From an uncultured Deinococcales bacterium (GTDB lineage Bacteria > Deinococcota > Deinococci > Deinococcales > JAAFIG01), in NCBI GenBank assembly GCA_964244895.1, contig CAXTKV010000021.1, positions 1 to 38,705 on the forward strand: a stretch of DNA of 38,705 bases, in the 5' to 3' direction. A program made the translations under genes and the position numbers. Below, one piece after another: positions 4,471 to 27,723 of this stretch (position 1 is the first letter of the stretch; every line of letters starts with the position of its first letter). The notes below the pieces were generated by a model. That model made no database searches. It was not told the DNA's origin and was given only the letters and a program-made list of their open reading frames with translations.

Positions 4471-5140
4471 AACCCATTCAAAGGGTCGGTTGGTCGGGCT
4501 CGAGGAATCGCTGCGCGCGAACGGCTTCGAGGTCGTTCACCACCCACTGATTGCCCTCGAACCCATCCGGGACGCGGATATGTCAACCCTGCTCGAGTGC
4601 CCGTGGTGGCTCGTGACCAGCGCCTCGAGCGCGGAAGCGCTCCGTCAGATCGGCGCGTCGTTCTCTGGGCGCAGGATCGGGAGCGTGGGTGAGGCGACCG
4701 CGCAAGCCTTGCGGTGGGCGGGCGCGACGGTCGATCTGGTCGGCTCGGGGACGGTGCAGCAACTGGGGACGCTTTTTCTGGAACGCGTCAACATCGGCCC
4801 CGTCGGCCTTCCGGTCGGTGATCGGGCGTTGCCCACGCTGCGAACCATGCTCGAGGGTGCCGGGCTCGAGGTGCGTCAGGTCGAGGTCTACCGCAACCGC
4901 GTCCTGGGCTGGCCCGAGCGCGCACCGACGCCAGAGATCATCGTGCTGGCCAGCCCTTCGGCGGTTTCCGCGCTGCCTGAGTCGGTCGCACGCCGAGCGC
5001 GATTGGTGGCGCTCGGGGAAACCACCGCCGAACGCGCCCAATCGCTCGGGCTACAATGCCTGACCGCGAGCCAGCCGACCGTCACGGCGACCCTCGAGAC
5101 CATCCTCGGGGTCAGGCTCGAGATCGAAAGGAAGCCCTGA
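4457..5140 (+). CDS. hemD: Uroporphyrinogen-III synthase
   Basis: VALTHS, HPLIALEP, VTSASSA, SVGEATAQAL, VEVYRN, LASPSAV, ALGETTA; follows hemC; GTG 4457 chosen as start. Confidence 0.88.
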   Translation: MRVALTHSKGRLVGLEESLRANGFEVVHHPLIALEPIRDADMSTLLECPWWLVTSASSAEALRQIGASFSGRRIGSVGEATAQALRWAGATVDLVGSGTVQQLGTLFLERVNIGPVGLPVGDRALPTLRTMLEGAGLEVRQVEVYRNRVLGWPERAPTPEIIVLASPSAVSALPESVARRARLVALGETTAERAQSLGLQCLTASQPTVTATLETILGVRLEIERKP

Positions 5141-5286
5141 TGTCCGATCCCCACGCGCTCGAGAACGGTTGTGCGGCTCAGAAACACCGTCTGGCACGGT
5201 ATTCTCTATTCGCGTGCTGGACGGTGTTCCTTGAAGCGCACCGACCGCTCGAGATCCCGCTACCCACCCGGAAACCCCGCCCGTGA
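5140..5286 (+). CDS. Putative 48-aa bridge ORF spanning a palindromic repeat
   Basis: ATG overlaps the hemD stop (TGATG) with SD AAAGGAAG; its TGA overlaps the GTG of the next gene (GTGA). Confidence 0.4.
   Translation: MSDPHALENGCAAQKHRLARYSLFACWTVFLEAHRPLEIPLPTRKPRP
5181..5230. repeat. Palindromic repeat family copy
   Basis: GAAACACCGTCTGGCACGGTATTCTC ... CGTGCTGGACGGTGTTCC. Confidence 0.8.
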
Positions 5287-6023
5287 GCGCGACCTACTAC
5301 CCGGCGATGCTGCACCTTCAGAACCGCCGCGTGCTGTTCATCGGCGGCGGCTGGGAGACGGAACTCAAGGTGCGCGGTCTGCTGGACGCGGGCGCGATCA
5401 TCACCGTCCTTTCCGCGCACGAACACGCGGGGCTCGAGGAACTGGCAACCGATGGCCGCATCGTCTGGCGCAGGCGCGCTTTTCAACCGGGCGACACGGC
5501 GGGCTTCTGGCTGGTGATGTCGCACCCGGTGGATAAGGCCGACAACGCCGCGGTGTACGCCGAAGCGGAAGCCAACGGGATTCTGTGCAACTGCGTGGAC
5601 GACCCCGAACGCTGCTCGTTCATCCTGCCCAGCGTGCTGCGGCGCGGCGATCTAGTAATCGGCGTCTCGACCAGCGGCACGGCTCCGGCCCTGGGCGTGC
5701 GGATCAAGCAGCGTCTGGCGCAGGAATTCGGGCCGGAATACGCGGCCTTCCTGCGCCTGCTGCGCGAGTTGCGCCCCGGCATCACCGCCGGGTTCCTGGA
5801 TTTCGAGACGCGCAAAGAGCTCTGGTACGCGCTGATCGATTCATCGGCGCTCGAGCTGATGCGCCGTGACCAACCCGATGCGGCCCGCGCGGAACTCGAG
5901 CGCGCGATCTCGGCCCGTCGCGCGGCCTGCGGGCTCGAGCGTTGCGCCGCGTGTACGGACAAAGCCTGCGCCGCGCACCTCGGGCTGGCGTCGCCCGAAA
6001 CGCCGACCGGGGTTTCATCGTGA
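5283..6023 (+). CDS. Precorrin-2 dehydrogenase/sirohydrochlorin ferrochelatase (CysG N-terminal/Met8p-like)
   Basis: YYPAMLHLQNRRVLFIGGG, CNCVDDPERCSFILPS, GVSTSGTAPAL. Confidence 0.9.
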   Translation: MSATYYPAMLHLQNRRVLFIGGGWETELKVRGLLDAGAIITVLSAHEHAGLEELATDGRIVWRRRAFQPGDTAGFWLVMSHPVDKADNAAVYAEAEANGILCNCVDDPERCSFILPSVLRRGDLVIGVSTSGTAPALGVRIKQRLAQEFGPEYAAFLRLLRELRPGITAGFLDFETRKELWYALIDSSALELMRRDQPDAARAELERAISARRAACGLERCAACTDKACAAHLGLASPETPTGVSS

Positions 6024-6784
6024 GCGCGCCCGGTCAGGTCTGGATCGTCGGCGCTGGCCCCGGCGATCCAGACCTGCTGACCGTCAAGGCCGCGCGGGTG
6101 CTCGAGTCTGCGGACGTGGTGCTCTACGACCGGCTGGTCGGCGCGGGCGTGCTGGAACTGATCCCGCCAACCGCAGAGCGCGTCTACGTCGGTAAGGGCC
6201 ACGGCGATCAGGACAGCGTTCAACCCGAAATCATGACGCAACTCGAGCACCATGCGCGCTCGGGCAAACGCACCGTGCGCCTCAAGGGCGGCGACCCGTT
6301 CGTCTTCGGGCGCGGCGCGGAGGAATGGGCGTACCTGAGCGCGCGCGGCGTGCAAGTCCAGGTCGTGCCCGGCATCAGTTCCAGCCTGGCGGTGCCATCG
6401 CTGGCCGGGATTCCGTTGACCTTTCGCGCCGTGGCTCGAGCCTTCGCGGTCGTGACCGGGCACCGCGCCATCGACCCGGACGCGGGTGCGCCGCCCGACT
6501 GGGCCGATTGCGCCCGCGTGGACACGCTGGTCGTGCTGATGGGCGTCGGTGAGCGCGCCAGCATCGCCAGCGCGTTGATCGCGGCGGGCCGCGACCCGGA
6601 TGAACCCTGTGCCTTCATCGAGCGCGGCACGACCCCGCACGAGCGCGTGATCGTCTCGAGCCTGGGACTCGTCAGCGACGGCCTGGTGGACGTGGAAGCC
6701 CCCGCCGTCTGGGTCATCGGTCGCGTGGTCGGCCTGCGCGAGACGTTGATCCCACCGGAACACCGTCCGGAACGCGAATCATGA
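6020..6784 (+). CDS. cobA: Uroporphyrinogen-III C-methyltransferase
   Basis: VWIVGAGPGDPDLLT, VVLYDRLV, VRLKGGDPFVFGRGAEE, VPGISS; GTG 6020 overlaps the upstream stop. Confidence 0.95.
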   Translation: MSAPGQVWIVGAGPGDPDLLTVKAARVLESADVVLYDRLVGAGVLELIPPTAERVYVGKGHGDQDSVQPEIMTQLEHHARSGKRTVRLKGGDPFVFGRGAEEWAYLSARGVQVQVVPGISSSLAVPSLAGIPLTFRAVARAFAVVTGHRAIDPDAGAPPDWADCARVDTLVVLMGVGERASIASALIAAGRDPDEPCAFIERGTTPHERVIVSSLGLVSDGLVDVEAPAVWVIGRVVGLRETLIPPEHRPERES

Positions 6785-6806
6785 ATGTCGTCCAGTACGG
6801 TGTTCT
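6758..6806. repeat. Palindromic repeat family copy overlapping the cobA 3' end
   Basis: GAACACCGTCCGGAACG ... CGTCCAGTACGGTGTTC. Confidence 0.8.
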
Positions 6807-7063
6807 CGAGCTTTTCCCTCCCTGCGAAGTAGGAGAGGACAGCGCGGTGCGATGTTCAGTGGCATCGGCAGCTTTATCGCCGATGACCGAGGGGTCGCCC
6901 CACCTCGAGCCCCGAAGCCACGAATCCTCGGGAACCCCGCCCCAGCCGCAGCGTGCGCCCTTCGTCGCCTCGAGCACTCCGCGCGCCCAGACCTCGAGCG
7001 ATGATTCACCCAGAGTCCCAGCCACGCTCTGAGCGGTAATCTCGAGCGTACAGAAGGAGCCGC

Positions 7064-8752
7064 ATGACTGCCCCCACCAAAAAATCCAAGGTCGAACTCG
7101 TCAAGGAACAGAGCCGGTATCTGCGCGGCCCGCTGGACACCGAACTGGGCAACGCGCAGGATCACTTCGGTGACGACGGCGGCGTGATCCTGAAGTTTCA
7201 CGGCATCTATCAACAGGACGACCGCGACATCCGAAAGGCGCGCAAGTCGCAGGGGCTCGGGCCGGATTACTCGTTCATGATTCGCGTGGCGATTCCGGGC
7301 GGGATGCTCTCGCCGGATCAGTACCTGGAACTGGACGCGCTCTCGGACAAACTGGCCAACACCACCATGCGCATCACGACGCGCCAGGCGATCCAGTATC
7401 ACGGCGTGCGCAAGGGCGGCCTGAAGCCGTTGATCGGTACGCTGAACGATCATTTGCTGACGACCCTTTCCGCGTGCGGTGACGTGGTCAGGAACGTGGT
7501 CGCCTGCCCTGCGCCGTTCGTCAGTCGTCAGCGCGCGGAAATCATGCGGTACGCGCTGGACATTTCCAACCGCCTCAAGCCGAAGGCCAGGGCGTACTAC
7601 GAACTCTGGCTGGATGGCGAGAAGGCCGCCAGTGCCGAACAGGAGGAACCCCTGTACGGCGAAACCTACTTGCCCCGCAAGTTCAAGATCGGGTTCGCCT
7701 ACCCCGGCGATAACTGCATCGATGCGTACACGCAGGATGTCGGCATCGTGCCCGTGATGAAGGGCGACCATCTCGAGGCCTTCACGCTGATCGTCGGCGG
7801 CGGCCTGGGTCAGAGCCACGGCGCGAAGGACACGCACCCCAGGCTGGGCGACCCGATGACGACCATACAACCGGATCAGCTGTTCGAGGTGGTGGAGGCC
7901 ATCGTCAAGGTGCAGCGCGATTTTGGTCGGCGCGACGACCGCAAGTTCAGCCGCATGAAATACCTGGTCGAAGCCTGGGGGATTCAGGCCTTCAAGAAAA
8001 AAGTCGAGGAGTACGTCGGTTACGCCCTGCCCACCGCCCAGCGGCTCGAGTGGGCGTCCGGCGACGATCACCTGGGCTGGTTCGAGCAGGGCGACGGCAA
8101 GCTTTTCCTGGGCCTCTTCATCGAGAACGGGCGCGTCAAGGACGATCTCCGCGCGGGCTTGAGGGCAGTGGTCGAACGCTTCCGCCCGGACGTGCGCCTG
8201 ACGCCGCAGCAGAACATCCTGCTGGTCAACATCGACCCCGCCGACAAGCTCGCGCTCGAGGGCGTGCTGACGGATCACGGCATCGCGCTGCCCGAGACGA
8301 TCCCGCTGGTGGTGCGCCACGCCATGGCCTGCCCCGCGCTGCCGACCTGCGGGCTGGCCGTGACCGAGGCCGAGCGCGTCATGCCGGACGTGATCCGCGA
8401 GATCGGCGCGGTGTTGACGGAACTGGGGCTGGATCAGGGCTTGGTGCCGCACGTGCGCATGACGGGCTGCCCGAACGGGTGCGCCCGCCCGTACAGCGCG
8501 GAAGTCGGGTTGGTCGGGCGCAGCCTGAACAGTTACACGATGTACCTGGGCGGCAGTCCCGTCGGGACCCGCCTGGCGAGCGAGTACCTGGACAACGTGC
8601 CCCGCGAACAGGTCGCGGCGCGCCTGCGGCCCGTGCTGGAACACTACCGGGATGCGCGGCGCGCAGAGGAGAGCTTCGGGGATTTCTGCGAGCGTGTGAG
8701 TCTCGAGACATTGCGCTCGCGCTTCGCGGGAGAAAATCAGTCCACCATCTGA
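7064..8752 (+). CDS. cysI: Assimilatory sulfite reductase, siroheme/[4Fe-4S] hemoprotein
   Basis: LKFHGIYQQDDRD, TTRQAIQYHG, ACGDVVRNV, YLPRKFKI, CPALPTC...TGCPNGC; SD AGAAGGAG. Confidence 0.95.
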   Translation: MTAPTKKSKVELVKEQSRYLRGPLDTELGNAQDHFGDDGGVILKFHGIYQQDDRDIRKARKSQGLGPDYSFMIRVAIPGGMLSPDQYLELDALSDKLANTTMRITTRQAIQYHGVRKGGLKPLIGTLNDHLLTTLSACGDVVRNVVACPAPFVSRQRAEIMRYALDISNRLKPKARAYYELWLDGEKAASAEQEEPLYGETYLPRKFKIGFAYPGDNCIDAYTQDVGIVPVMKGDHLEAFTLIVGGGLGQSHGAKDTHPRLGDPMTTIQPDQLFEVVEAIVKVQRDFGRRDDRKFSRMKYLVEAWGIQAFKKKVEEYVGYALPTAQRLEWASGDDHLGWFEQGDGKLFLGLFIENGRVKDDLRAGLRAVVERFRPDVRLTPQQNILLVNIDPADKLALEGVLTDHGIALPETIPLVVRHAMACPALPTCGLAVTEAERVMPDVIREIGAVLTELGLDQGLVPHVRMTGCPNGCARPYSAEVGLVGRSLNSYTMYLGGSPVGTRLASEYLDNVPREQVAARLRPVLEHYRDARRAEESFGDFCERVSLETLRSRFAGENQSTI

Positions 8753-8813
8753 AGGACGTTTTCTCGAGATTCCGCGAGCGACCAAAAAAATATTCCAAGC
8801 CGAGGAACCCACA

Positions 8814-9428
8814 GTGAGCGCCAAATCGAAATCCAGATCGTCCAAGTCTCGAAAACGCGGTCGCGCCATCGAACCGGCCCGGCCCAAACCGTCCCTGCCC
8901 GTCGTGCCGTTGGCGATCGCGGCCATCGTGCTGATCGCCGCGATCGTGATCGTGCCCAGTTTTTTCCGGGGCACACTGACGAAAATTGATGGCGTCGAAA
9001 CCTTCACGAACCTGGCCCGCGATCACGTCACCGGATCGGTTTCGTATCCGCAGACCCCGCCCGTCGGCGGAAAGCACAGTTCCGTCTGGCAGAACTGCGG
9101 CATTTACGACCAGCCCGTGCCACTCGAGACCGCCGTGCATTCAATGGAGCACGGCGCAGTCTGGATCGCGTACCGCCCCGACCTGGACGACAAGGACGTG
9201 CAGACGCTGCGCAACCTGGTCAAGGGCCGCCCGTACACGCTGCTCGCGCCGTACCAGTACGGGGCGCTGGATCACCCGGTCGTGGCGGTCGCGTGGGGTT
9301 TGCGTCTGCAACTCGAGAAAGCCGACGATCCGCGTCTGGCGCAGTTCGTCAACGCCTACGCCAACGGTTCGCAAGCCCCCGAACCCGGCGCGGCCTGCGT
9401 CGGCGGTACGGGTCGCCCGGTGGACTAA
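8814..9428 (+). CDS. DUF3105 domain membrane-anchored protein
   Basis: N-terminal TM; PPVGGKH, WQNCGIY, VHSMEHGAVWIAY, APEPGAAC. Confidence 0.85.
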   Translation: MSAKSKSRSSKSRKRGRAIEPARPKPSLPVVPLAIAAIVLIAAIVIVPSFFRGTLTKIDGVETFTNLARDHVTGSVSYPQTPPVGGKHSSVWQNCGIYDQPVPLETAVHSMEHGAVWIAYRPDLDDKDVQTLRNLVKGRPYTLLAPYQYGALDHPVVAVAWGLRLQLEKADDPRLAQFVNAYANGSQAPEPGAACVGGTGRPVD

Positions 9429-9491
9429 AGAAACACCGTCCCAGACGGTGTTTCTCGGGATTCAAGATCATGCGTCCTGGACGGTGTTCTT
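9429..9491. repeat. Palindromic repeat family copy between convergent genes (possible terminator)
   Basis: AGAAACACCGTC-CCA-GACGGTGTTTCT hairpin plus GCGTCCTGGACGGTGTTCTT. Confidence 0.88.
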
Positions 9492-9503
9492 GAGCAGAAA
9501 TTT

Positions 9504-10256
9504 TCAGAACAACGCCGCCTGAGCCTCTTTCTTGGGTACCTCCGGCAGCGCGCTCAACTCCACGAACTCGAGCCCGGATTTTTCAAGCACACTGCGGGCA
9601 GGTTTGCTGATGCTGGGTGCGGCCAGGATGCCGCGCACCTCGCCGGGAACCTGATCGCGCACGGCGCTGACGTAACGCTCGAGCTGATGCACGGCTTCCT
9701 GTGTGGCCTTGCCGCGTTTGACTTCGACCACGACGTAGCGCCCCTGTTCGTCCATGGCGTACAGGTCGATGCCGCCCACGCCGACCAGCAACTCGCGCTC
9801 CAGAACCCGCAATCCGGTTTCGATCGCGTTCGGGTTTTCGGCCAGGCGCGTGTGCATCTGGGCTTCGGAACCGTGCAACTGGAAAACCTTCTCGTCGCGG
9901 AGTTCCAACGCCATCACCAGGGAGGTTTTTCTGAAGGTGATCTGCACCAGTTCGTCCGGTTTGAAGCGTTCCGCCATCAGCATCACGCGGTCGTCCTCGT
10001 CGCGGGTGACGCGCAGATCGTCCGTGCGCGGTTGCCAGTTGATCGGTTTGACGCCGCGCGCGCCGTGAACTTGCAGGCTGCCGTCCGACTTGATGATCAC
10101 GATGTAATCTCCGGCTTCGGTCAGGCTGGCGGCCCGTCCGACGTAGACGATCTCGCATTCGGCGGCGATCTGCACGAGCTTTTTCGCGTGCAGGTGCGCG
10201 CGCAGGAAGTCTTCCAGGTCGCGCAAACCGGGTTGCTCGAGGACGACGGGGTTCAC
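9504..10256 (-). CDS. nucS: Endonuclease NucS/EndoMS
   Basis: CEIVYVGRA, IIKSDGSLQVH, KPINWQP, SEAQM, GIDLYA...VVVEVKR...AVHQLERY, RGILAAPSI; TAGCCT-N6-GTG leaderless promoter. Confidence 0.92.
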   Translation of the reverse strand: MNPVVLEQPGLRDLEDFLRAHLHAKKLVQIAAECEIVYVGRAASLTEAGDYIVIIKSDGSLQVHGARGVKPINWQPRTDDLRVTRDEDDRVMLMAERFKPDELVQITFRKTSLVMALELRDEKVFQLHGSEAQMHTRLAENPNAIETGLRVLERELLVGVGGIDLYAMDEQGRYVVVEVKRGKATQEAVHQLERYVSAVRDQVPGEVRGILAAPSISKPARSVLEKSGLEFVELSALPEVPKKEAQAALF

Positions 10257-10338
10257 GCCCTCAGGCTACCGCGCGCTGCAGCGGGACTCAATCGGGCGCT
10301 CGAGCAGGTTCAGGCTCGAGCGGTGACGGAGCGTGCCC

Positions 10339-10399
10339 AAGAAAACACCGTCCAGCACGCCGTTTTTTGATGCTCAGGAATCGTGCGCTGGACGGTCTT
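10339..10399. repeat. Palindromic repeat family copy
   Basis: AAGAAAACACCGTCCAGCACGC ... GCGCTGGACGGTCTT. Confidence 0.78.
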
Positions 10400-10754
10400 A
10401 TTTTTTGGTCGGGCTGAGAATCATGATTTCGTCGATGAATTCCTCGAGCATGGTCGGCATCCTGACCGGGTTGAGCATCAGGTCGAGCGCCGCGAACACG
10501 TCGGGATCGCAGTCGGCCACGAAACGGTAGCGGTGTGATCCGTCCGATTTGCGCAGTGAAGCGAGCTTGCGGACTTCCAACGGGAAGTCCACCACGATCG
10601 TCAGCGTGCCGTGCCCGCGCGCGATGCGCTCGTTGTTTTGCAGCATGAATTCGCCGTGCACCTCGCCCTTCAGGGGATCGAGCGAGGTGATTTGACCATC
10701 CACCACCCAGTAAGTGACGGTGTCGGCGCGAATTGAAGAACCGTTCAACCTCAT
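10398..10754 (-). CDS. Hypothetical protein (start uncertain, ORF open to 10826)
   Basis: Protein-like composition; no motif recognised. Confidence 0.55.
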   Translation of the reverse strand: MRLNGSSIRADTVTYWVVDGQITSLDPLKGEVHGEFMLQNNERIARGHGTLTIVVDFPLEVRKLASLRKSDGSHRYRFVADCDPDVFAALDLMLNPVRMPTMLEEFIDEIMILSPTKK

Positions 10755-10901
10755 CGGCACAAGAGTCTCACTGTTTATGCGTCCTGTCCGGTCAAATCCG
10801 ACACGAGAAGACTTTACAAGACGCACTTTTTGGGCTGGTCGGGTCGCATTCGATTCGATTGGCGGGTCGCATTCGATTTGTCTGCACGGTAGACTCGGTG
10901 C

Positions 10902-11480
10902 ATGAAATTCGATTCAGCCACCAAAGCCGAACTGGAGGCGGGCGTCAGCCAATCCCGGCTGGCGCAACTCGCGGAACTTTCGGCCTCTACGCTGCGCGGT
11001 TACGAAAAAGAGGGTCTGATCCCGACCCGAAGCCTGGGCGGCAAGAAACTCTACGACCAGAGCGCCCTGGCCGCGCTCGAGACGATCAAGGCTTTGCGCG
11101 CCGAGGGTTTGAGCCTCGGTGAGATCTTTGAGCGCCTGAAAACCCCGGACTCGAGCCCGATTGTTGACGCCGCGTCCGCGACCGACGCGCCCGTTCTCGC
11201 CCAGACTGAGGCCGAATTGCGCGCCCAGATCGAGGGTCTGCGCGCCCAGTTGCAGGCTGAACGCGCCAAGATCGAGCAGCTTTCAAACCAGGTCGAGACG
11301 CGCGTGGTCAGGCGGCGCAACGAACTGGTGCTGACCAAAAAAGAACTCGAGGAACTCGAGCGAATGCGCGAATCGAACGTCAAACGCGCCGTGGCCGTCA
11401 CCCGCCGCGCCACCGCGTTGCGCTACAGCGCGACCCGTCCGGGCGTGATTTTATTCGACCCCAAAAAACCCCGAAAGTAA
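10902..11480 (+). CDS. MerR-family HTH protein with C-terminal coiled coil
   Basis: LAELSASTLRGYEKEGLIP...LYD...IKALRAEGLSLGEI; TAGACT-N6-ATG leaderless promoter. Confidence 0.85.
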   Translation: MKFDSATKAELEAGVSQSRLAQLAELSASTLRGYEKEGLIPTRSLGGKKLYDQSALAALETIKALRAEGLSLGEIFERLKTPDSSPIVDAASATDAPVLAQTEAELRAQIEGLRAQLQAERAKIEQLSNQVETRVVRRRNELVLTKKELEELERMRESNVKRAVAVTRRATALRYSATRPGVILFDPKKPRK

Positions 11481-11493
11481 CGCGTGCGCGCCC

Positions 11494-11523
11494 AAGAATA
11501 CCGTTCAGAACGGTTTTCTTTTC
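11494..11523. terminator. Repeat-family hairpin between convergent genes, probable terminator
   Basis: AAGAATACCGTTC-A-GAACGGTTTTCTT followed by T-rich run. Confidence 0.6.
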
Positions 11524-11547
11524 ATTCCCAGAAGGCCGCGCGAGACG

Positions 11548-12096: not shown

Positions 12097-12154
12097 GAAC
12101 CGCGTACACGCCGAGTACACGAACCGCGTACACGCCGGGTACACGAACCACGAA
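12097..12154 (+). repeat. 2.4 x 24-bp tandem repeat in the pepF leader
   Basis: GAACCGCGTACACGCCG(A/G)GTACAC twice plus a partial copy, just after TATACT (12082-12087). Confidence 0.85.
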
Positions 12155-12178
12155 AGCCCCGCATCTCAAGGAGCCCGA

Positions 12179-13990: not shown

Positions 13991-13999
13991 CTTTTTAGG

Positions 14000-18139: not shown

Positions 18140-19606
18140 ATGATTGATCCCAAGAGCAAGATGGAACTCGATCTGGACGTGTCGGGTTCCGCGCCAATCT
18201 ATCGTCAGATTTACAGCAGCATCGCTCAGGCGGTGTTGGATGGGCGGCTCGCTTCAGGAACGCGCCTCCCTTCGGCCCGAAGCCTTGCAGCTCAACTTTC
18301 GGTAGCTCGAGGAACGGTCGAGATGGCCTACCACCTCTTGGCGGGCGAGGGCTACATTCTGGCCCGTGGTGCGGCGGGGACACGGGTTCGTGCGGGTCTC
18401 AAACGGGCATTGCTCCAGGCTGGCGCCGAGGCTCGATTCAATCGGGAGAACCTACAACTCGAGCATTCGGATACCTTCACCCCGTCGGGAGTGTTCCAGA
18501 TGGGTATTCCGGCGCTCGATTCGTTTCCGCAATCGATCTGGTCGCGCCTTTTATCCCAACAGGCGCGAAAAACGAATCCAACAGACCTGGCGTACCCGCA
18601 CCCGGCGGGTCTCGAGATGTTGCGGGTTCAGGTCGCGGGCTACTTGGCCGTGGCTCGAGGCATCGCCTGCGCGCCAGACGACATCTTGATCACGAACGGT
18701 TATCAGGGCGCACTGGGTTTGATCGCCCATCGCCTGCTTCACCCTGAGGATCGGGTCTGGATGGAAGACCCCGGCTACCCGGATAGTCGGGATGCCATGC
18801 GGCTCGCGGGGGTGAAGGTGATCGGGATGGCGGTAGATCGAAACGGACTCGACGTGCAGCGAGCAATCTCGAGAAACCGTCCTGCGCGGATCGTCATGGT
18901 CACGCCGACACACCACTATCCGACGGGGGTGACGCTCTCGCTCTCGAGACGGATCGAACTGTTGAAGTGGGCTACAGAACATGATGCGTGGATCGTCGAG
19001 GACGATTACGACAGCGAATTCCGGTATCAGGGAAAGCCCGTTCCGGCGCTCAAAAGCCTGGATCGCCACGACTGCGTCGTGTATGCGGGGACGTTCAGTA
19101 AGGTGCTCTCTCCGAGCCTTCGGGTGGGGTATCTGGTGGTTCCGCCGAAGCTCAAACAAGGCCTATGGGAGACCGCCGCGCTTCTCGCGCCACCGCCTCC
19201 CGTGATTGTGCAGGCCACCATCGCAGCCTTTCTCGAGGAGGGTCATTTCGGTCGTCACATCCGACGAATGCGGGCACGGTACGCCGAACGACGAACCGCA
19301 CTCATCCGGGCGTTAGGGCAGGTGAGTTTTGGCCTCAGTATTGAACTTCAACCCGGCGGAATGCACCTGCTGGGGCGGCTACCCAGGGGCACGGACGATG
19401 TTGGCCTCGTTGCGCATTTGAAACTTCAGGGTTTTCGTCCGACCTCGCTCTCCGGTTGCGGGGTCGAAGCCCCTTACAAACCTGGGTTGTTGCTGGGATT
19501 CACCAATGTGGATTCCCGCGATGCATCGGAAGTCGCACGACGTTTGGCAGATGCGGTAAAGGGTTTCTTGGGTGCTAGAATCTCGCGTTCAGGACGGTCT
19601 TCTTAA
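18140..19606 (+). CDS. MocR/GabR-family GntR regulator with PLP domain
   Basis: PIYRQIY...RLPSARSLAAQLSVARGTV, EDPGY, WIVEDDYDSEFRY, GTFSKVLSPSLRVGY; divergent from the CMD/EamA genes. Confidence 0.93.
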   Translation: MIDPKSKMELDLDVSGSAPIYRQIYSSIAQAVLDGRLASGTRLPSARSLAAQLSVARGTVEMAYHLLAGEGYILARGAAGTRVRAGLKRALLQAGAEARFNRENLQLEHSDTFTPSGVFQMGIPALDSFPQSIWSRLLSQQARKTNPTDLAYPHPAGLEMLRVQVAGYLAVARGIACAPDDILITNGYQGALGLIAHRLLHPEDRVWMEDPGYPDSRDAMRLAGVKVIGMAVDRNGLDVQRAISRNRPARIVMVTPTHHYPTGVTLSLSRRIELLKWATEHDAWIVEDDYDSEFRYQGKPVPALKSLDRHDCVVYAGTFSKVLSPSLRVGYLVVPPKLKQGLWETAALLAPPPPVIVQATIAAFLEEGHFGRHIRRMRARYAERRTALIRALGQVSFGLSIELQPGGMHLLGRLPRGTDDVGLVAHLKLQGFRPTSLSGCGVEAPYKPGLLLGFTNVDSRDASEVARRLADAVKGFLGARISRSGRSS

Positions 19607-20033: not shown

Positions 20034-20094
20034 AGGGTTCCCTTTCGTCGTACTTTCGTCATAAGAGTCGCTGGCGGTGAGTCTTCTCTCAACC

Positions 20095-20562: not shown

Positions 20563-20578
20563 GCAACAGATTGTCATG

Positions 20579-20596
20579 TTGACAGGTAATTGTCAA
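20579..20596. promoter_or_regulatory. Putative MarR operator overlapping its own -35
   Basis: TTGACA-GGTAAT-TGTCAA palindrome just upstream of the marR start. Confidence 0.65.
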
Positions 20597-20630
20597 ATAG
20601 GCTGATGGCGTACTCGAGACAGATCCTCAG

Positions 20631-20689
20631 GAGACCGTCCTGGACACACTTCTCGAGCAACCGAGGTTCGTGTGCTGGACGGTGGTCTC
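20631..20689. repeat. Palindromic repeat family copy
   Basis: GAGACCGTCCTGGACAC ... GTGTGCTGGACGGTGGTCTC. Confidence 0.75.
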
Positions 20690-20743
20690 GATTCGCCAAC
20701 AGGCTTCGCCATTTCGCCTAAAACAGAATCTGCCCCGAACGGT

Positions 20744-20749
20744 TAGAAT
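20744..20749 (+). promoter_or_regulatory. -10 element of a leaderless polA transcript
   Basis: TAGAAT, 6 nt, ATG 20756; no SD. Confidence 0.65.
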
Positions 20750-20755
20750 TGAACC

Positions 20756-23527
20756 ATGAGCCAGCCGAATCTTTTCGAGCCCGACGACCAGCCGGACTCG
20801 GGCGAACCGAACTCGACCCCGGCGCAGACGGCCTCGACCGCAGCGGCCACCAACGAGCCCGAGGAAACCGTCGAGGACGAACGCGGCATCCCACCGGCCT
20901 CCGAGACCGTCGAATTCATTCACCGCGCCCCGAAATCGGATGGCGTCATGCCCAAACGCGTGGTGCTGATCGACGGTCACGCCCTGGCCTACCGTTCGTA
21001 CTTCGCGCTCTCTCGAGGGCCGACGACGATGATGACATCGAAGGGCGAACCGACCCAGGCCATATTTGGCTTCATGAAAACGCTGATGAAATTGCTGCGC
21101 GACGGCGGGGATTCGAGCAAGAAGAAGATTCCCGCCATGGCGCTTTCGGATGCCAGGGATCACGCCGTGATCGTGGTCTTCGACCCACCCGTCAAAACCT
21201 TTCGCCACGAAGCCTTCGCGGATTACAAGGCGGGCCGCGCCCAGACGCCGGACGACCTGCCGGAGCAGATCAGAAAGATCAAGCGCCTGGTGGATTTGAT
21301 GGGTCTGGTGCGGCTCGAGGTCGGCGGGTTCGAGGCCGACGACGTGATCGGCACGCTCGCCCGGCGCGCCGAGGAAGCGGGAGCGGAGGTGCGCATCCTG
21401 ACCAGCGACCGCGACGCGTACCAGTTGCTTTCGGATCGGGTGCGCGTGATCGGCAGCGATAACGCGGAAATCGCGCCCGCCGATGTCAAGGCCAAGTACG
21501 GTGTGACGGTCGAGCAATGGGTCGATTACCGCTCCTTGACCGGGGATTCCAGCGACAACATTCCGGGAGCGAAAGGGATCGGGCCGAAGGGCGCGCAGAA
21601 GCTGCTGGAAACCTACGGCAGTTTGCAGTACATCCTGGATCACCTCGACGAGATCAAGCCCGAAAAGGACGCCCAAAAAATTCGGGACAGCTATGAAAAC
21701 GTGATCTTCAGCAAGGAACTTTCCAGGATCGTGACGCACGTCGACCTGGACGTGGATTTCACCACCGCCAAGGTTCACGAACCCGATGTCGAGGCGCTCA
21801 AGGCCCTGCTGCGCGAACTCGAGTTCAACAGTTTCGTCAGGGAACTCGGGCTGGAATCGGGCAGCGACCCCCTGACGCCAGCCAGACCCGTCCTCCAGAT
21901 CGAGCGCGCAGACTGGATCAATCCCGACGCGAACGCGATCTACGGTTTCGTGCTTTCAGAAGACAACCCGGTCGGGGCTCAAATCACGGGATTGGCCTAC
22001 GCCGACCCGCGCGCGAACTGGAGCGTTCGGGAATCGCCCGCCCCAAGCTTGGAATCTATCGGTGAAAACACCGTGCTGCACGGTGCGGATGCCAAAGCGC
22101 TGGCGGTGCACGCGATTTCTTGGGGCATGAAGGTAGAGCCCGGCGACGACCCGATCTTGATGGCGTACTGCCTCGATCCCAACACGGCGGAACCCGCGCG
22201 AGCCGCCCAGCGTTACCTCGAGACGGACTGGCCCAAGGACGCCGCGGGCCGCGCCAGCGTGGGCGCGAGACTGTTGCAGGAACTGCCGAAGCTGATGGCT
22301 CCAGAAATCAGGTCGCTCTACGACGATCTCGAGAAACCCACGGCGGTCGTGCTCGCCAAAATAGAGGCGCACGGCATCCTGATCGACGCGCCGTTCTTCA
22401 AGGGATTGTCGGACGCGATGGGCGCGCGAATCCAGGCGCTCGAGCATGAGGTCTGGGGGCTGGCGGGCGAGGAATTCAACCTGAACAGCCGCGACAAGCT
22501 CGAGGCATTGTTGTACGACAAACTCCAGCTCGCGTCCGGCAAGAAAACGAAACTGACCGGCAAGCGTTCGACCGCGGTCAGCGAACTGGAAAAGTTGCGC
22601 GACGAGCACCCGATCATCCCGAAAATCCTCGAGTACCGCGAGATCGCCAAGTTGCGCGGCACGTACCTCGATCCGTTGCCGATGCTGGTCAACCCCAGAA
22701 CGGGACGTTTGCACACGACCTTCTCGCAGACGGTCGCGGCCACGGGCCGGTTGTCCAGCATCAACCCGAACCTGCAGAACATTCCGGTGCGCACCGAGAT
22801 GGGGCGCGAGATCCGCAAGGGCTTCATCGCCGCGCCGGGTTGCAAGCTCCTGAGCGCCGATTACAGCCAGATCGAATTGCGGATTCTGGCGCACATCACC
22901 GAAGAACCCGCGCTGATCGAGGGCTTCAAGAACGATGAGGACATTCACCGCCGCACCGCCGCCACGATCCTGAACATCCCCCTGGAATCCGTCACCAGCG
23001 ACCAGCGCCGGGGCGCGAAGACCATCAATTACGGCGTGCTGTACGGCATGAGCGCCCACCGGCTGGCCAACGACATGGGCATGCCCTATGAAGATGCCAA
23101 GGGCTTCATCGAGCGTTACTTCGGCGCGTATCCGGGCATCACGAAATACCTGGAAGACACCAAGGAATTCTGCCGCAAGAACGGCTACGTGCAGGACTTG
23201 TTCGGGCGGCGACGGTACATGCCTGAAATCAACGCCAAAGCCTTCCCCGTCCGCGAGGCCGCCGAGCGCGCCGCGATCAACATGCCGATCCAGGGAACCT
23301 CTGCGGGCATCATCAAGCGCGCCATGATCGACCTCGATCCGTTGCTGGGGCCATCCGGTGCGCGGTTGCTGTTGCAGGTTCACGACGAACTGGTGGTCGA
23401 ATGCCCGCATGATCACGTCGAAGCGGTCAGCAAGATCCTGTGCGCCACGATGGAGAACGCCTTCCCGCTGAGGGTTCCCTTGGGCGTCGAGGTCGGCGCT
23501 GGCGCGACCTGGTACGACGCGCACTGA
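20756..23527 (+). CDS. polA: DNA polymerase I (Taq-type, degenerate 3'-5' exonuclease)
   Basis: VLIDGHALAYRSY, YKAGR, FEADDVIG, GDSSDNIPG, ATGRLSSINPNLQNIP, ADYSQIELR, AKTINYG, QVHDEL. Confidence 0.97.
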   Translation: MSQPNLFEPDDQPDSGEPNSTPAQTASTAAATNEPEETVEDERGIPPASETVEFIHRAPKSDGVMPKRVVLIDGHALAYRSYFALSRGPTTMMTSKGEPTQAIFGFMKTLMKLLRDGGDSSKKKIPAMALSDARDHAVIVVFDPPVKTFRHEAFADYKAGRAQTPDDLPEQIRKIKRLVDLMGLVRLEVGGFEADDVIGTLARRAEEAGAEVRILTSDRDAYQLLSDRVRVIGSDNAEIAPADVKAKYGVTVEQWVDYRSLTGDSSDNIPGAKGIGPKGAQKLLETYGSLQYILDHLDEIKPEKDAQKIRDSYENVIFSKELSRIVTHVDLDVDFTTAKVHEPDVEALKALLRELEFNSFVRELGLESGSDPLTPARPVLQIERADWINPDANAIYGFVLSEDNPVGAQITGLAYADPRANWSVRESPAPSLESIGENTVLHGADAKALAVHAISWGMKVEPGDDPILMAYCLDPNTAEPARAAQRYLETDWPKDAAGRASVGARLLQELPKLMAPEIRSLYDDLEKPTAVVLAKIEAHGILIDAPFFKGLSDAMGARIQALEHEVWGLAGEEFNLNSRDKLEALLYDKLQLASGKKTKLTGKRSTAVSELEKLRDEHPIIPKILEYREIAKLRGTYLDPLPMLVNPRTGRLHTTFSQTVAATGRLSSINPNLQNIPVRTEMGREIRKGFIAAPGCKLLSADYSQIELRILAHITEEPALIEGFKNDEDIHRRTAATILNIPLESVTSDQRRGAKTINYGVLYGMSAHRLANDMGMPYEDAKGFIERYFGAYPGITKYLEDTKEFCRKNGYVQDLFGRRRYMPEINAKAFPVREAAERAAINMPIQGTSAGIIKRAMIDLDPLLGPSGARLLLQVHDELVVECPHDHVEAVSKILCATMENAFPLRVPLGVEVGAGATWYDAH

Positions 23528-23536
23528 GAATCGCCG

Positions 23537-23585
23537 AAAGACCGTCCTGGACGCACGGCGAAATGTGCGTCCAGGACGGTGTTTT
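23537..23585. repeat. Palindromic repeat family copy after polA (perfect 16-bp arms)
   Basis: ACCGTCCTGGACGCAC ... GTGCGTCCAGGACGGT. Confidence 0.9.
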
Positions 23586-23745
23586 CATTTATTTAGAGCC
23601 TTCGGGGTGCGCCGACCCGAGCGGCGAATCCCGCCAGCAGGTGGCGGGTACTCGAGTCACGTCACGAAGGCCAAGCGTTGGGACGCTCAGCAACAAAAAG
23701 AGCGGGTAAGAAAGGCGTGATATTTCATTATTTATCCTTACCCTC

Positions 23746-25554
23746 ATGATTCAAGCCCGGTCTCGAGACCTTCGCCACAATTCCGTCCCCGCATGGCGAG
23801 CGCTCAGTCTCGCCATCAGCGCCGCAGCCCTGATGGCCTGCAATCAGATGCCCGCCGCCAACCTGGGCGCGGCTGGCGAAAGCGGCAAGTTCACCGTGAC
23901 CGTTCAGGTCAGCGCCAGCGATACGACCGCGAACCTGGAACAGAAGTACGGCGGCAGCATGCTGTCCTGGCACCCTGAGGCCGGATTCGCCATCCTGGGT
24001 GTCAATGCCCGACCACCCAGCAACGATCCCGCCGTCAAAGGCGTCGATGAAAGCCTCGGGACGCTCAAAGCGCCCGTGGTCGCCACCACCAACAGGGTTC
24101 CGCTGACGCCCCAGGGCAACGCGGCCAACGCCGAGAACGTCTGGATGGGCGGTTGGACGGCTTGGTCCGGCGGCTGGACAGCCTGGTCCGGCGGTTGGAC
24201 GGCCTGGTCCGGTGGCTCGAGCGTCCCGTCTTTGCCCGCGCAGAACAACGTGGCGTTTTCGCAGATTCGCTTGCCGCAGGCCCAAGCCATCAGCCGCAAC
24301 TTCGGCGCGGGCGTCAAGGTCGCAGTGATCGATACCGGCATCGACACGGCGCACCCGGTCTTCGCGGGTCGCCTCGCCCCCGCCGCAGAGTGGAAAGACT
24401 ACGTCGACAACGATGCCAACCCGCAGGAAGTCGGCACGACCTCCGACCGGGCTTACGGTCACGGCACGGGCGTGGCGGGCATCGTCTTGCAGGTCGCACC
24501 GAAAGCCACGATCCTGCCGTTGCGCGTGCTGGACAAGAACGGTTCCGGCGACCTGGACAAGGTCGTGCTGGCCATCGACTGGGCCATCGCCAAGGGCGCG
24601 CAGGTCATCAACCTCTCGCTCGGTTCCGCCCAGAACCAGACATCGTTGATTACCGAACTCCAATACGCCGCCAGCAAGAAGGTTTACGTCGTCGCCTCGG
24701 CGGGCAACGACGGCATGAAGGACGGCATCACCTACCCCGCCGCCACGACCTACTGGGATGGCGTGAAGGGTTTCGTTTTCGGCATCGGCAGCGTCAACTC
24801 GACGGACATCCTCTCGAGCTTCACCAATTACGGCGGTAGCCTCTTCGGGGTGATCCCCGGCGAATCGATCTTCAGCGCCTTTCCGGGCAACAAGGCGGCG
24901 GCCTTCACCGGAACCTCTTTCGCTGCACCGATCCTGAGCGGTGCCCTGGCGCTCGGCCTGAAGGAGCTGCCCGCCGGGGTGGACGCTGGGGCGTTCAGCA
25001 AGTACCTGATGGATGGCTTCCGCAACGGCAACATCTACGACGAAAACGTGAGCGCGCGCGGCACGGACGGCATCGGTAACGGTCGGTTGGACATTGAAGC
25101 GCTGATTCGCAACTTCCCCAACTGGACGCCAAAAGTTGCATACAGCGCGACCAACGCTGTTATCAACGGCGCGTTTGCCAGCGGCACCACGGGCTGGAAC
25201 TGGTGGGGTGTCCCCAGTCTGATGGCGGATGGTGGCAACACGGTGGTCAAGCTCAACCCCGGCGATGGCATCTACCAGATCATCACCGGCCTGAAACCCA
25301 ACACCAGCTACACCCTCAGCGCCTGGATGCGCGGCACCAACGCCGCGCAGGGCATGGCGCTCAGCGTCAGCAGTTTTGGCGGCACGGTTTCCAGCTTGAC
25401 CATCACACCGACCGGCACGACTTACGCGCCGCGCTACCTGACCTTCACGACCGGCCCAACCACGACCAGCATCGCTTTCGACGTGTCTAACTGGGTCGGC
25501 AACACCCAGACGGTCTACGCCTACAACGTCAGCTTGCGTCAGGCCGGGTACTGA
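23746..25554 (+). CDS. S8 subtilase lipoprotein with C-terminal CBM4/9-like domain
   Basis: Lipobox LMAC; catalytic VAVIDTG, HGTGVAG, ASAGN and GTSFAAP; C-terminal INGAFASG..GW...GLKPNTSYTLSAWMR; TATCCT-N7-ATG. Confidence 0.9.
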   Translation: MIQARSRDLRHNSVPAWRALSLAISAAALMACNQMPAANLGAAGESGKFTVTVQVSASDTTANLEQKYGGSMLSWHPEAGFAILGVNARPPSNDPAVKGVDESLGTLKAPVVATTNRVPLTPQGNAANAENVWMGGWTAWSGGWTAWSGGWTAWSGGSSVPSLPAQNNVAFSQIRLPQAQAISRNFGAGVKVAVIDTGIDTAHPVFAGRLAPAAEWKDYVDNDANPQEVGTTSDRAYGHGTGVAGIVLQVAPKATILPLRVLDKNGSGDLDKVVLAIDWAIAKGAQVINLSLGSAQNQTSLITELQYAASKKVYVVASAGNDGMKDGITYPAATTYWDGVKGFVFGIGSVNSTDILSSFTNYGGSLFGVIPGESIFSAFPGNKAAAFTGTSFAAPILSGALALGLKELPAGVDAGAFSKYLMDGFRNGNIYDENVSARGTDGIGNGRLDIEALIRNFPNWTPKVAYSATNAVINGAFASGTTGWNWWGVPSLMADGGNTVVKLNPGDGIYQIITGLKPNTSYTLSAWMRGTNAAQGMALSVSSFGGTVSSLTITPTGTTYAPRYLTFTTGPTTTSIAFDVSNWVGNTQTVYAYNVSLRQAGY

Positions 25555-25570
25555 ATTTCAGACAACACTG

Positions 25571-25649
25571 TTCTTGCTCGAAAGACAGCACCTATCGGGC
25601 TACTCGCGCTTCTTGCTCGAAAGACAGCACCTATCGGGCTACTCGCGCT
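25571..25649 (+). repeat. 2 x 39-bp perfect tandem duplication
   Basis: TTCTTGCTCGAAAGACAGCACCTATCGGGCTACTCGCGC twice. Confidence 0.92.
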
Positions 25650-25674
25650 CCAGCACGCAAATTCCTTCGTCTCG

Positions 25675-25699
25675 AGAACACCGTCCAGGACGGTGTTCT
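25675..25699. repeat. Palindromic repeat family copy
   Basis: AGAACACCGTCC-A-GGACGGTGTTCT. Confidence 0.9.
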
Positions 25700-25834
25700 T
25701 TGTTGGATCGCACCTGGAAAGCGGGAAGGGATCGATCCCGTCGTCGCTCCGACTCGAGCGCCAGCGGAGGGCGCGAAAACGCGCCGCTTGAACTGGCGTT
25801 CAGGCATCTGGTGCTATCCTCCTGGCTAACCTTT

Positions 25835-27160
25835 ATGACTCAACGCAAATTCTTCGGTACGGACGGCGTGCGATCAATCGCGGGAGAATTCCCGTTGACA
25901 GCGGACTGGACGCTCGATCTGGGGCGGGCGGCGGCGGAAGTCTTCAAATCGCAATCCCGCAAGCCGACCGTGGTGATCGGGCGCGACACGCGCAAGAGCG
26001 GCGACATGCTCGAGGCGGCGCTGGCGGCGGGATTGACGGCGCGCGGCGTCAACGTGATCCACGTCGGCGTGATTCCGACGCCGGGCGTGAGCTACTTGAC
26101 GCGCCAGCTTTCCGCCACGGCGGGCGTGGTGATTTCCGCGTCCCACAACCCCTTCGAGGACAACGGCATCAAGTTCTTCGGCGGCAACGGCGAGAAGCTT
26201 TCCGACACCCTCGAACTCGAGATCGAATCGAAGATCGGCGCGGCCCTCGAGCCCGTCACGGGCGTCAACGTCGGCACGGTCACGGATTACCGCGAGGCGG
26301 AACGCCAGTACTCGGATTTCCTGAACGAGCACGCGCCAGACCTGACGGGCTTGCGGATCGCGCTCGATTGCGCCAACGGTGCGACCTTCAAAATGGCGCC
26401 GCGCGTCTTTCAGCGCGCCGGGGCGGACGTGTTCGCGGTGTACACCACCCCGGATGGCAAGAACATCAACTGGCAGTGCGGCAGCACCCACCCCGAACAC
26501 CTGCAACGCCTGGTGCGCGAGGGCAGCTACGACCTGGGCGTGGCCTTCGACGGCGACGGCGACCGCGCCATTTTGGTCGATCACACCGGAGAACTGGTGC
26601 ACGGCGACCACATGCTCTACATCACGGCCCTGCACCGCAAGGAAAGCACCGTCGTGGCCACGCTGATGTCCAACATGGGCCTGGAAGTCAAGCTGCGCGA
26701 GCACGGCATCAGCTTGGAGCGCACCGCCGTCGGCGACCGCTACGTCCACGAACGCCTGCTCGAACGCGGCCTGACCCTCGGTGGCGAGCAATCTGGCCAC
26801 CTGCTGTTCCTGGACGCCGCACCGACTGGCGATGGCATCCTGACGGCCCTCGAAACTCTTAAAGCCATGCGTGCCAGCGACAAGAACCTTCAGGATTGGC
26901 GTCTCGAGATGCCGATGTTCCCGCAGACCCTGCTGAACGTTCGCGTGACCGACAAGCACGGCATCAGCCAGCATGCGGACGTTGCGGCAGCCGTGGCCGT
27001 GGCCGAGCGCGCCCTCGACGGGCGAGGCCGCGTCAACCTGCGCCCCAGCGGCACCGAGCCCCTGGTGCGCGTGATGGTCGAAGGCCCCTCCGAAGCCGAG
27101 ATCAAAGAACTCGCTCAGGCGGTCGCGGACGTGATCAGACGCGTCGGGGGAGAGGCGTGA
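25835..27160 (+). CDS. glmM: Phosphoglucosamine mutase
   Basis: RKFFGTDGVR, GRDTRKSG, VISASHNP, AFDGDGDR, VGDRYV, GGEQSGH, RPSGTEPLVRVMVE. Confidence 0.97.
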   Translation: MTQRKFFGTDGVRSIAGEFPLTADWTLDLGRAAAEVFKSQSRKPTVVIGRDTRKSGDMLEAALAAGLTARGVNVIHVGVIPTPGVSYLTRQLSATAGVVISASHNPFEDNGIKFFGGNGEKLSDTLELEIESKIGAALEPVTGVNVGTVTDYREAERQYSDFLNEHAPDLTGLRIALDCANGATFKMAPRVFQRAGADVFAVYTTPDGKNINWQCGSTHPEHLQRLVREGSYDLGVAFDGDGDRAILVDHTGELVHGDHMLYITALHRKESTVVATLMSNMGLEVKLREHGISLERTAVGDRYVHERLLERGLTLGGEQSGHLLFLDAAPTGDGILTALETLKAMRASDKNLQDWRLEMPMFPQTLLNVRVTDKHGISQHADVAAAVAVAERALDGRGRVNLRPSGTEPLVRVMVEGPSEAEIKELAQAVADVIRRVGGEA

Positions 27161-27294
27161 GGGCCACGGGCCGCAGGTCACAGGTCACGAGTCAGACCCG
27201 AGCGCACCGTTCTGAACGCGTCCTCGAGATCGCGTCCGGAACGGTGTTCTCGAGTTTTCCCCTTTTACCTTTGCCCTTTCCCCTCTCTCCATGA
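27157..27294 (+). CDS. Putative 45-aa bridge ORF spanning a palindromic repeat
   Basis: GTG overlaps the glmM stop (GTGA); its TGA overlaps the rbfA ATG (ATGA); rbfA has no SD. Confidence 0.4.
   Translation: MRATGRRSQVTSQTRAHRSERVLEIASGTVFSSFPLLPLPFPLSP
27205..27251. repeat. Palindromic repeat family copy
   Basis: CACCGTTCTGAACGCG ... CGCGTCCGGAACGGTG with CTCGAG in spacer. Confidence 0.8.
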
Positions 27295-27590
27295 GCCAGC
27301 GCACCGCGCAGGTCGAAGCCAGCATCGGGCGCGCGCTTTCCGGCGCGATCCACGAATTGCACGATCCCAGATTGCCGATCATCGTGACCGTCGAACGCGT
27401 CAGGATCAGCCCGGACTTGCTGCACGCGAAAGTGTTTATTTCCAGCATCGGGGACACCGTGCAGGCTGTGGCTGCGCTCGATCACGCCAAGGGTTACCTG
27501 CAACGCCAGATCGCGGGCGAACTGAAGCTCAAGCGCACGCCCCTGCTCGAGTTTCACCCGGTCGGCGACGACCCGATGGGGATATTGTGA
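27291..27590 (+). CDS. rbfA: Ribosome-binding factor A
   Basis: LHDPRL, VTVERVRISPDLLHAKVFIS, LDHAKGYLQRQIA..LKLKRTPLLEF. Confidence 0.92.
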   Translation: MSQRTAQVEASIGRALSGAIHELHDPRLPIIVTVERVRISPDLLHAKVFISSIGDTVQAVAALDHAKGYLQRQIAGELKLKRTPLLEFHPVGDDPMGIL

Positions 27591-27723
27591 CGGTCGTTCC
27601 CGGCACATCTATAACCGTGACGGTCGTTCCCGGCACATCTATAACCGTGACGGTCGTTCCCGGCCCATCGAGGACACTGTGACGGTCGTTCCCGGCACAT
27701 TGGGGACACTGTGATGGTCGTTC
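27587..27723 (+). repeat. Tandem array (30,30,32,32 bp plus a partial unit) at the rbfA/thioesterase junction
   Basis: Each unit begins GTGA(C/T)GGTCGTTC. Confidence 0.92.

Follow-up and report, generated by a model that had tools for sequence, protein, structure and literature searches.

Four junctions between co-directional genes in a 38,705-nt stretch of DNA from an uncultured Deinococcales bacterium (contig CAXTKV010000021.1 of assembly GCA_964244895.1; hereafter the window) hold inserted DNA, and at each of them the gap is spanned by short open reading frames (ORFs), here called bridges, that overlap the flanking genes at both ends. Across the genome bridges are more frequent than chance would give; the excess requires both an ATG or GTG that overlaps the upstream stop codon and the frame coupled to it, and bridges are concentrated at junctions that were ancestrally coupled. 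The inserts come from three sources: tandem duplication of the junction, dispersed hairpins that resemble repetitive extragenic palindromes (REP), and arms of heptamer repeats. The reading that we favor, with a probability of roughly 65%, is that selection removes inserts that break termination-reinitiation, which would leave disposable relay ORFs far above the chance level. Translation of the bridges, the hand-over of ribosomes along them and selection as the cause are what we infer from these sequence comparisons.

Stop/start overlaps of -4 or -1 are reported to couple the translation of neighboring genes (PMC6728339), and in the experiments described in PMC10666635 gaps of about 20 nt nearly abolish coupling, so that an unbridged insert would be costly. 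We propose that an insert at a coupled junction would starve the downstream gene unless the old start codon opened a frame ending on the downstream start. A ribosome finishing the upstream gene could then restart on the overlapped ATG or GTG, read a disposable peptide across the insert and restart once more on the downstream gene. Other outcomes would be purged, except where the downstream gene has or gains a Shine-Dalgarno (SD) sequence or a -10 promoter of its own.

The host genome (G000; 5.12 Mb in 328 contigs, 62.7% GC, 91% complete, with the window as its contig C21) is the sole member of its genus among 19 family genomes. Genes were called with a custom-trained dicodon caller that gives no bonus to overlaps, which yielded 4413 genes and 2583 co-directional junctions, 401 of them direct -4 or -1 overlaps; flanking genes were named by Pfam and NCBIfam profile matches. 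For gaps of 5-400 nt we compared the coupled frame with the +1 frame of the same gaps as a control, and under the strict rule a bridge had to end on the downstream start at -4 or -1. Where a start overlapped the upstream stop, a single ORF bridged 154 of 441 gaps in the coupled frame versus 52 of 441 in the +1 frame (p 6.5e-13), an excess that the preliminary description of the window had anticipated, and gaps without an overlapped start showed none (123 versus 144 of 1371). With chains of ORFs allowed, 176 junctions are bridged; the pairs include nuoB-C-D-H, mraY-murD, accD-accA, pdhA-pdhB and ABC permeases, and the inserts are unrelated mosaics of 7-381 nt. The excess is sharply peaked at an end position of exactly -4 (100 versus 35 of 427) and is also seen when only gaps containing REP-like hairpins are counted (85 versus 23 of 236).

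With RTGA (ATGA or GTGA) at both ends, gap lengths modulo 3 were distributed as 128, 52 and 31 of 211 versus 214, 213 and 201 of 628 in controls, the third class (31 of 211) being depleted by construction. The in-phase gaps were stop-free in 100 of 128 cases, versus 61 expected from dinucleotide shuffles; 85 of 214 controls were open. Among 31 junction duplications at RTGA stops, which include one assembly-gap artefact and a few loose matches, 15 have unit lengths that give a relay, 13 extend the frame and three break it (p 0.0024), and two sets of control duplications (9/12/18 and 8/10/7) do not avoid the breaking class. The idea that bridges are chance ORFs at 63% GC, overlooked small genes or artefacts of start calling is hardly credible in the light of these counts and is largely refuted genome-wide, even though the control frame yields 12% (52 of 441), so that roughly one bridge in three may be accidental, in keeping with the caution in the preliminary description that such ORFs also arise by chance, and single cases such as the hemD-cysG-N bridge in the window cannot be told from a chance ORF. 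A chance or start-calling origin does not explain why the excess is limited to the overlapped start and the coupled frame, nor why it persists when the entry codon is forced to equal an independently called start (70 versus 18 and 47 versus 20) and with homology-fixed starts in relatives. Since a positive coding score was obtained for only 11 of 176 bridges (maximum 2.5), they are not missed genes, although a real 99-aa gene between rbfA and the thioesterase gene of two relatives mimics one.

Bridges are found chiefly where relatives overlap directly. In 1.6 Mb of five other genomes, 142 junctions of G000 have an orthologous gene pair, and the share of G000 gaps of at least 20 nt that carry a bridge is 12 of 19 where the relative overlaps directly, two of nine where its genes are merely close, and seven of 60 where it is gapped as well (12/19 versus 7/60, Fisher p 2.4e-5). 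Six g4 relatives and others have hemC and hemD in direct -4 overlap, and direct overlap is the usual state both of this junction and of that between rbfA and the thioesterase gene. At glmM-rbfA, surveyed in 18 family members, there is a direct -4 overlap in six and a -8 overlap in three, and six relatives carry inserts of 13, 54, 136, 151, 151 and 334 nt, all of them exact -4/-4 bridges; two hold an unbridged insert, in which the stop is TAA and rbfA is preceded by an SD, and the remaining member has an assembly gap. These three junctions of the window are thus coupled junctions that have been invaded. The earlier expectation that orthologous junctions overlap directly or keep the frame mostly holds for them; it is not supported for hemD-cysG-N, whose genes are not adjacent in any of the relatives' loci examined. 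We therefore reject hemD-cysG-N as an ancestral pair and treat it as specific to this lineage; of the four junctions it is the one of which we are least sure.

Relatives carry unrelated inserts at the same junctions, and these are bridged as well. At accD-accA (L305-L321), ten family members carry inserts of 33-335 nt, many with heptamer arms, and each of the ten has an ATG on the accD stop whose frame stays open until at most 14 nt from the accA start; a TAA together with a gap of 2 nt is found in seven other members. Together with further inserts from family searches at nuo, mraY, accD, truA and cysG-N, 22 inserts of relatives were assembled. An overlapped start is present in 20 of them, and all 20 are spanned to between -16 and +4 nt of the next start, versus five and two of 20 in the control frames and 3.2 expected from shuffles; the strict -4/-1 rule retains 10 of 20. 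Stop codons over these inserts number three in the bridge frame versus 36 and 24 in the other two, and the AT-rich inserts L014, L016 and L018 have three to six stops in each other frame and none in the bridge frame. Left out of this test were L002 (an assembly gap of N), L012/L019 (the gene of about 99 aa after rbfA), nuoC-nuoD in relatives (direct overlaps or short SD-led gaps), pheS-pheT, L038 (an in-frame extension), L288/L290 (a longer overlap) and non-family genomes; outside the family, L024 and L029 are bridged and L025 and L026 are not.

Might the bridges simply follow from how DNA is inserted? An RTGA target or the whole junction could be duplicated, and the repeats could be stop-poor or shaped by the element itself, as proposed for the mycobacterial interspersed repetitive units (MIRU), with no filtering by the host at each junction. 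A junction duplication of 3n or 3n+2 automatically yields an extension or a relay, 17 of 152 bridges, more than among random pairs, show a signature of flank duplication, and heptamer arms are stop-free on the sense strand, with sense-type arrays starting within about 25 nt of a stop. However, mechanics alone would make all three phases equally common, yet the 3n+1 class is depleted (3 of 31 duplications; 52 versus 128 gaps). Bridging inserts share neither a fixed length nor a sequence, and the two RTGA open with an identical purine in just 93 of 152 bridges, with about 81 expected. The downstream start at accD-accA is ATGG, ATGC or GTGG, so that no RTGA duplication is possible there, yet all ten inserts read through; the AT-rich inserts, with stops confined to the two other frames, likewise argue against a by-product. 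We consider an insertion by-product quite unlikely, and RTGA target-site duplication is weakly supported as a full explanation.

Several observations weigh against selection on the hand-over. Start positions come from our custom caller rather than from a curated annotation. Control phases are also more open than shuffled sequence (33 versus 21 of 52; 90 versus 63 of 201), so the shuffles predict slightly too many stops, and few stops occur in any frame of the heptamer arms. About a third of the bridges are expected by chance, and of the 441 overlapped starts 265 are dead ends by the strict rule. The preliminary description had held that inserts persist only if they form a relay; this proved too strong, given that seven of the 19 gaps with directly overlapping orthologues are unbridged under the strict rule and that the two SD-led glmM-rbfA inserts exist. 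In the test on relatives, the -16 to +4 window was set after accD-accA had been seen, the junctions were picked because G000 is bridged there, and some inserts are homologous (L308/L309, L016/L018 and perhaps the g5 accD set); taken by itself, the G007/G009 pair is weak evidence, with a probability of staying open of 0.29. A close relative's contig (run X1) differs by -12 nt at glmM-rbfA and by -62 nt (one 30-nt and one 32-nt unit) at rbfA-thioesterase and keeps the phase at both, but this is one contig at depth 5 with 79 replaced letters, the only informative one among the contigs of three runs. Random stretches of four relatives lean alike, none significantly (6:2, 4:1, 4:1 and 3:0), and one no-overlap control in these stretches is skewed too (13:6).

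Among the 25 co-directional junctions of the window, six are gapped with an overlapped start and four of these six are bridged, by the six short ORFs that the preliminary description had picked out, all of which an ORF check recovered in place. The genes, bridges and tandem arrays of the four junctions all lie on the forward strand. At the first junction, hemC (3539..4432; Pfam Porphobil_deam) and hemD (4457..5140; Pfam HEM4, with a start that agrees with relatives) are separated by a 14-nt tandem duplication in 2.9 copies (4430..4469; Tandem Repeats Finder, TRF) of the junction and the hemD 5' end. Because the unit begins with RTGA and 14 is 3n+2, the start of each copy runs into the TGA of the next, giving two bridges of five codons each: one from a GTG that overlaps the hemC stop at -4 (4429..4446) and one from an ATG that ends at -4 on the hemD GTG at 4457 (4443..4460). 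An in-frame TTG at 4436, 3 nt past the hemC stop, is an alternative entry into hemD.

The second junction leads from hemD to a gene for a cysG N-terminal domain (cysG-N; 5283..6023; precorrin-2 dehydrogenase type by profile match). Its bridge of 48 codons (5140..5286) starts with an ATG at -1 on hemD, ends at -4 on cysG-N, has a coding score of -16 and runs through the core of a dispersed REP-like palindrome (5183..5229; 357 BLAST hits in the genome), the region folding at -62.7 kcal/mol. In G000, hemC-hemD lies together with genes of sulfate assimilation and siroheme synthesis (window 366-8752: ATP sulfurylase, rhodanese, cysG-N, methylase and sulfite reductase), an adjacency not seen in the relatives' loci examined.

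At the third junction, glmM (25835..27160; TIGR01455 above cut-off) and rbfA (27291..27590; Pfam RBFA) are joined by a bridge of 45 codons (27157..27294; GTG start, -4/-4, coding score -8). Within it lie a left heptamer arm (27174..27188; 7-nt period, TRF), a REP-like palindrome (27199..27254; region -57.1 kcal/mol; 107 BLAST hits in the genome) and a pyrimidine-rich right arm with a 7-nt period in 4.1 copies (27256..27284; TRF). Upstream of glmM, at 25571-25649, a perfect 39-nt tandem duplication stands beside another REP-like hairpin, and its unit recurs in other intergenic inserts (e.g. on contigs C10 and C243). The fourth junction is a tandem duplication of the rbfA/thioesterase junction (27587..27710; repeat analysis and TRF) whose four units, all beginning with GTGA, measure 30, 30, 32 and 32 nt; the 30-nt units lengthen the frame, and the 32-nt units terminate it, after which it restarts. 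Two bridges of 31 codons (27587..27682) and 11 codons (27679..27714) lead to a YbgC/FadM-family thioesterase gene (27711..28121; TIGR00051) that starts at GTG 27711 (-4) or ATG 27714 (-1). Relatives L012 and L019 (both genus g3 genomes) have an inserted gene of roughly 99 aa at this place, and in G002 it overlaps both neighbors by -4. The claim that all four junctions are filled with repeat-derived DNA holds in so far as dispersed hairpins occupy the second and third; the first and fourth are local tandem duplications, free of hairpins (folding z-score about -0.15).

The main rival keeps selection and changes its reason: the bridge would be translated and selected because ribosomes melt a hairpin that hides the downstream start, or prevent premature termination or decay, and the downstream gene would initiate de novo with no hand-over. 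Strong folding of the hemD-cysG-N and glmM-rbfA inserts (z-scores -4.4 and -4.25) favors it, as do the many bridges whose end lies 0-14 nt away from the start and not at -4 or -1 (42 versus 12 genome-wide, and accD-accA in nine relatives) and the SD present in about half of the bridged genes. A short ORF over integron attC hairpins is described in PMC8876359 as relieving such a barrier. On the other hand, the excess peaks at exactly -4, the hairpin-free duplications follow the same frame rule, and both rbfA and cysG-N lack the SD that de novo initiation would use. With an anti-SD that agrees with G000's own 16S tail, pairing energies are +1.9 kcal/mol for rbfA and -3.5 kcal/mol for cysG-N, in line with the preliminary description, and an SD is present at the starts of the bridges leading to them (-8.8 and -9.8 kcal/mol, respectively). 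We regard this rival as unlikely.

Selection on the hand-over also agrees with the sequences that precede the genes. Before the downstream gene, an SD-like motif is as frequent at bridged (48%) as at directly coupled junctions (47%), which rules out SD depletion as the signature of bridged genes that the two SD-less genes had suggested and fits the use of SDs in reinitiation reported in PMC6728339. Before the bridge start itself, the motif is found in 30% of bridges, compared with 47% of direct junctions, 14% of overlapped starts that lead nowhere and 7% of convergent controls. TANNNT just before a start is described as a leaderless promoter in this phylum (PMC12340547). This -10-like motif precedes the downstream gene at 1.2% of direct junctions, 7 of 176 bridged junctions, 49 of 265 dead ends and 23% of the 1371 gaps without an overlapped start (bridged versus unbridged, p 3.4e-6), and on this evidence the bridged genes look operon-internal.

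If the bridges are translated, they would add over a hundred new peptides (median length 36 aa in G000), many with hairpins within them, and the preliminary description had suggested micro-peptides and a tunable, hairpin-dependent control step. That bridges encode functional micro-peptides, or that they control the downstream gene in the manner of an attenuator, is very improbable on our data. Coding scores are zero or below for 165 of 176 bridges, Pfam gave no match for the hemD-cysG-N and glmM-rbfA bridges or the 31-codon bridge after rbfA, Rfam gave none in the window, and among the relatives examined no conserved peptide or RNA structure of the kind expected of a leader peptide or attenuator was seen at bridges. 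Bridge peptides at the same junction are unrelated between lineages, and the 33 substitutions between two homologous inserts are spread evenly over codon positions (13/9/11), for which reason the peptide sequence is likely irrelevant and the peptide disposable.

As to the origin of the inserts, the hairpins, which we call REP-like for what we take to be a resemblance to REP/REPIN sequences, occur in 102 of 176 bridges and in an equal share of unbridged gaps; matches to their half-core number 3078 in intergenic DNA versus 294 in called genes. A search of G000 for DUF559 gave a single weak match. The heptamer arms are like those of four-helix-bundle cassettes. The only PF05635 match in G000 (contig C80, 4258-4719; L141) is a 119-aa four-helix-bundle gene (PF05635/TIGR02436) that lies within heptamer arrays at the pheS-pheT junction and is entered through a 20-codon -4/-4 bridge. 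On its 3' side two TTG-started mini-ORFs end on the pheT ATG; pheT has an SD where seen and the junction often holds other genes, which excludes pheS-pheT as an ancestral -4 coupled pair, and the mini-ORFs may thus be incidental. Most family members hold other inserted DNA or genes at pheS-pheT, and G015 has a broken copy of the four-helix-bundle gene there, whose arms match the glmM-rbfA inserts of G007 and G009 (L016/L018). The gene is present in five of 18 relatives, each time behind another gene's stop in an operon-like setting. Such cassettes are not always bridged: as read by eye, those of L229, L230, L231 and L233 depend on SDs. In the window, the glmM-rbfA junction has heptamer arrays at both ends, directly after the stop codon, with no four-helix-bundle gene between them. 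Because its arms resemble those of the cassettes in L141 and L229-L233, the right arm being like those behind the four-helix-bundle genes of L229-L231, this junction is probably what remains of a cassette, lacking the gene and containing a hairpin. Heptamer repeats before a four-helix-bundle ORF are reported for the Coxiella 23S intervening sequence (PMC4990558).

Other features of the DNA stand apart from the bridges. A Taq-type polA and the nearest named glmM loci, which belong to metagenome-assembled genomes labeled 'Deinococcales bacterium' at 74-75% identity, assign G000 to an uncultured family of Deinococcales. A GntR-aminotransferase (MocR-type) gene at 18140-19606 has atypical codon usage and a near-zero coding score and was possibly acquired. 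In-frame tandem repeats lie inside or at the start of coding ORFs at 12097-12149 (24 nt), 24148-24217 (21 nt) and 36427-36508 (24 nt). The top hexamer, CTCGAG, has 21,883 copies in G000 and a density of 4-6 per kb in family members, versus 0.09 and 2.2 per kb in two genomes from outside the family; we take this abundance to be reminiscent of cyanobacterial HIP1.

Why stop/start overlaps persist, and what weight coupling carries in nature, has so far been tested mostly on a few reporter pairs, and many independent insertions into coupled junctions amount to a natural experiment. Survivors keep the phase and stay stop-free despite unrelated sequences, which points to selection on the hand-over itself. 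This widens the MIRU idea from one mycobacterial element to any inserted DNA, offers about a hundred testable junctions in one genome and predicts a hidden class of disposable micro-proteins overlooked by annotation; the relay layout matches the bicistronic design of synthetic biology. A bolder and doubtful extension is that coupling acts as a genome-wide sieve on non-coding DNA, admitting only 'translation-transparent' inserts, so that a hundred or so obligatorily translated relay cistrons would form a nursery for de novo genes or for hairpin-gated control of complex subunits, and that heptamer cassettes may have evolved stop-free arms for this niche. Apart from MIRU and integrons, our searches of the open-access literature turned up no description of bridging ORFs as a general, genome-wide phenomenon, and none of heptamer-armed cassettes in operons.

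The bridges resemble several known systems in part. Like the REP/REPIN sequences of other bacteria, the hairpins of G000 are abundant and intergenic; a search for a Y1 transposase (PF01797), the cognate REP-associated tyrosine transposase (RAYT) of REP systems, found none in G000, a 91%-complete assembly of 328 contigs. The cassettes share heptamer repeats before an ORF and inverted terminal repeats with the 23S rRNA intervening sequences (S23p, PF05635, TIGR02436) described in PMC4990558, but they sit in mRNA operon junctions, and the glmM-rbfA insert consists of arms and a hairpin without the gene. As with the short ORFs over attC hairpins and ORF-11 of attI1, in the account given in PMC8876359, an ORF through a palindrome feeds a poorly initiating gene and the peptide matters little; those ORFs are parts of site-specific recombination systems, whereas the bridges lie in housekeeping operons with no integron involved. 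With established termination-reinitiation pairs (PMC6728339, PMC10666635) the bridges have in common the -4/-1 geometry, here at both ends, an enrichment in subunit operons and a frequent SD before the restart codon, but the intermediate cistron here is a non-conserved by-product of insertion and not a gene.

The closest parallel is the MIRU (Supply et al. 1997), a repeat that carries a short ORF coupled at -4 and that was proposed to sit at junctions with minimal effect on expression, its tandem copies oriented with transcription (PMC12548453, PMC5056196). As at MIRU loci, junction repeat DNA in G000 carries a short ORF coupled at -4 to a flanking gene. As for direct tandem repeats without obvious palindromes, hemC-hemD and rbfA-thioesterase are of this kind, and hemD-cysG-N and glmM-rbfA, with their strong hairpins, are not. 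In these sources MIRU are non-palindromic units of 40-100 bp at about 41 loci. No homologous dispersed unit of that size supplies the ORF and its ends in G000, where the inserts are unrelated mosaics and flank duplication is limited to the 17 of 152 bridges given above; the bridges are not MIRU, because they lack a common unit and palindromes make up half of the inserts. Compared with MIRU as these sources portray them, the bridges of G000 are locus-specific mosaics from at least three sources, palindromes included, they number about 100 beyond chance in one genome, their ORF does not belong to an element as a constant component, and within the family the same junction has repeatedly received independent inserts.

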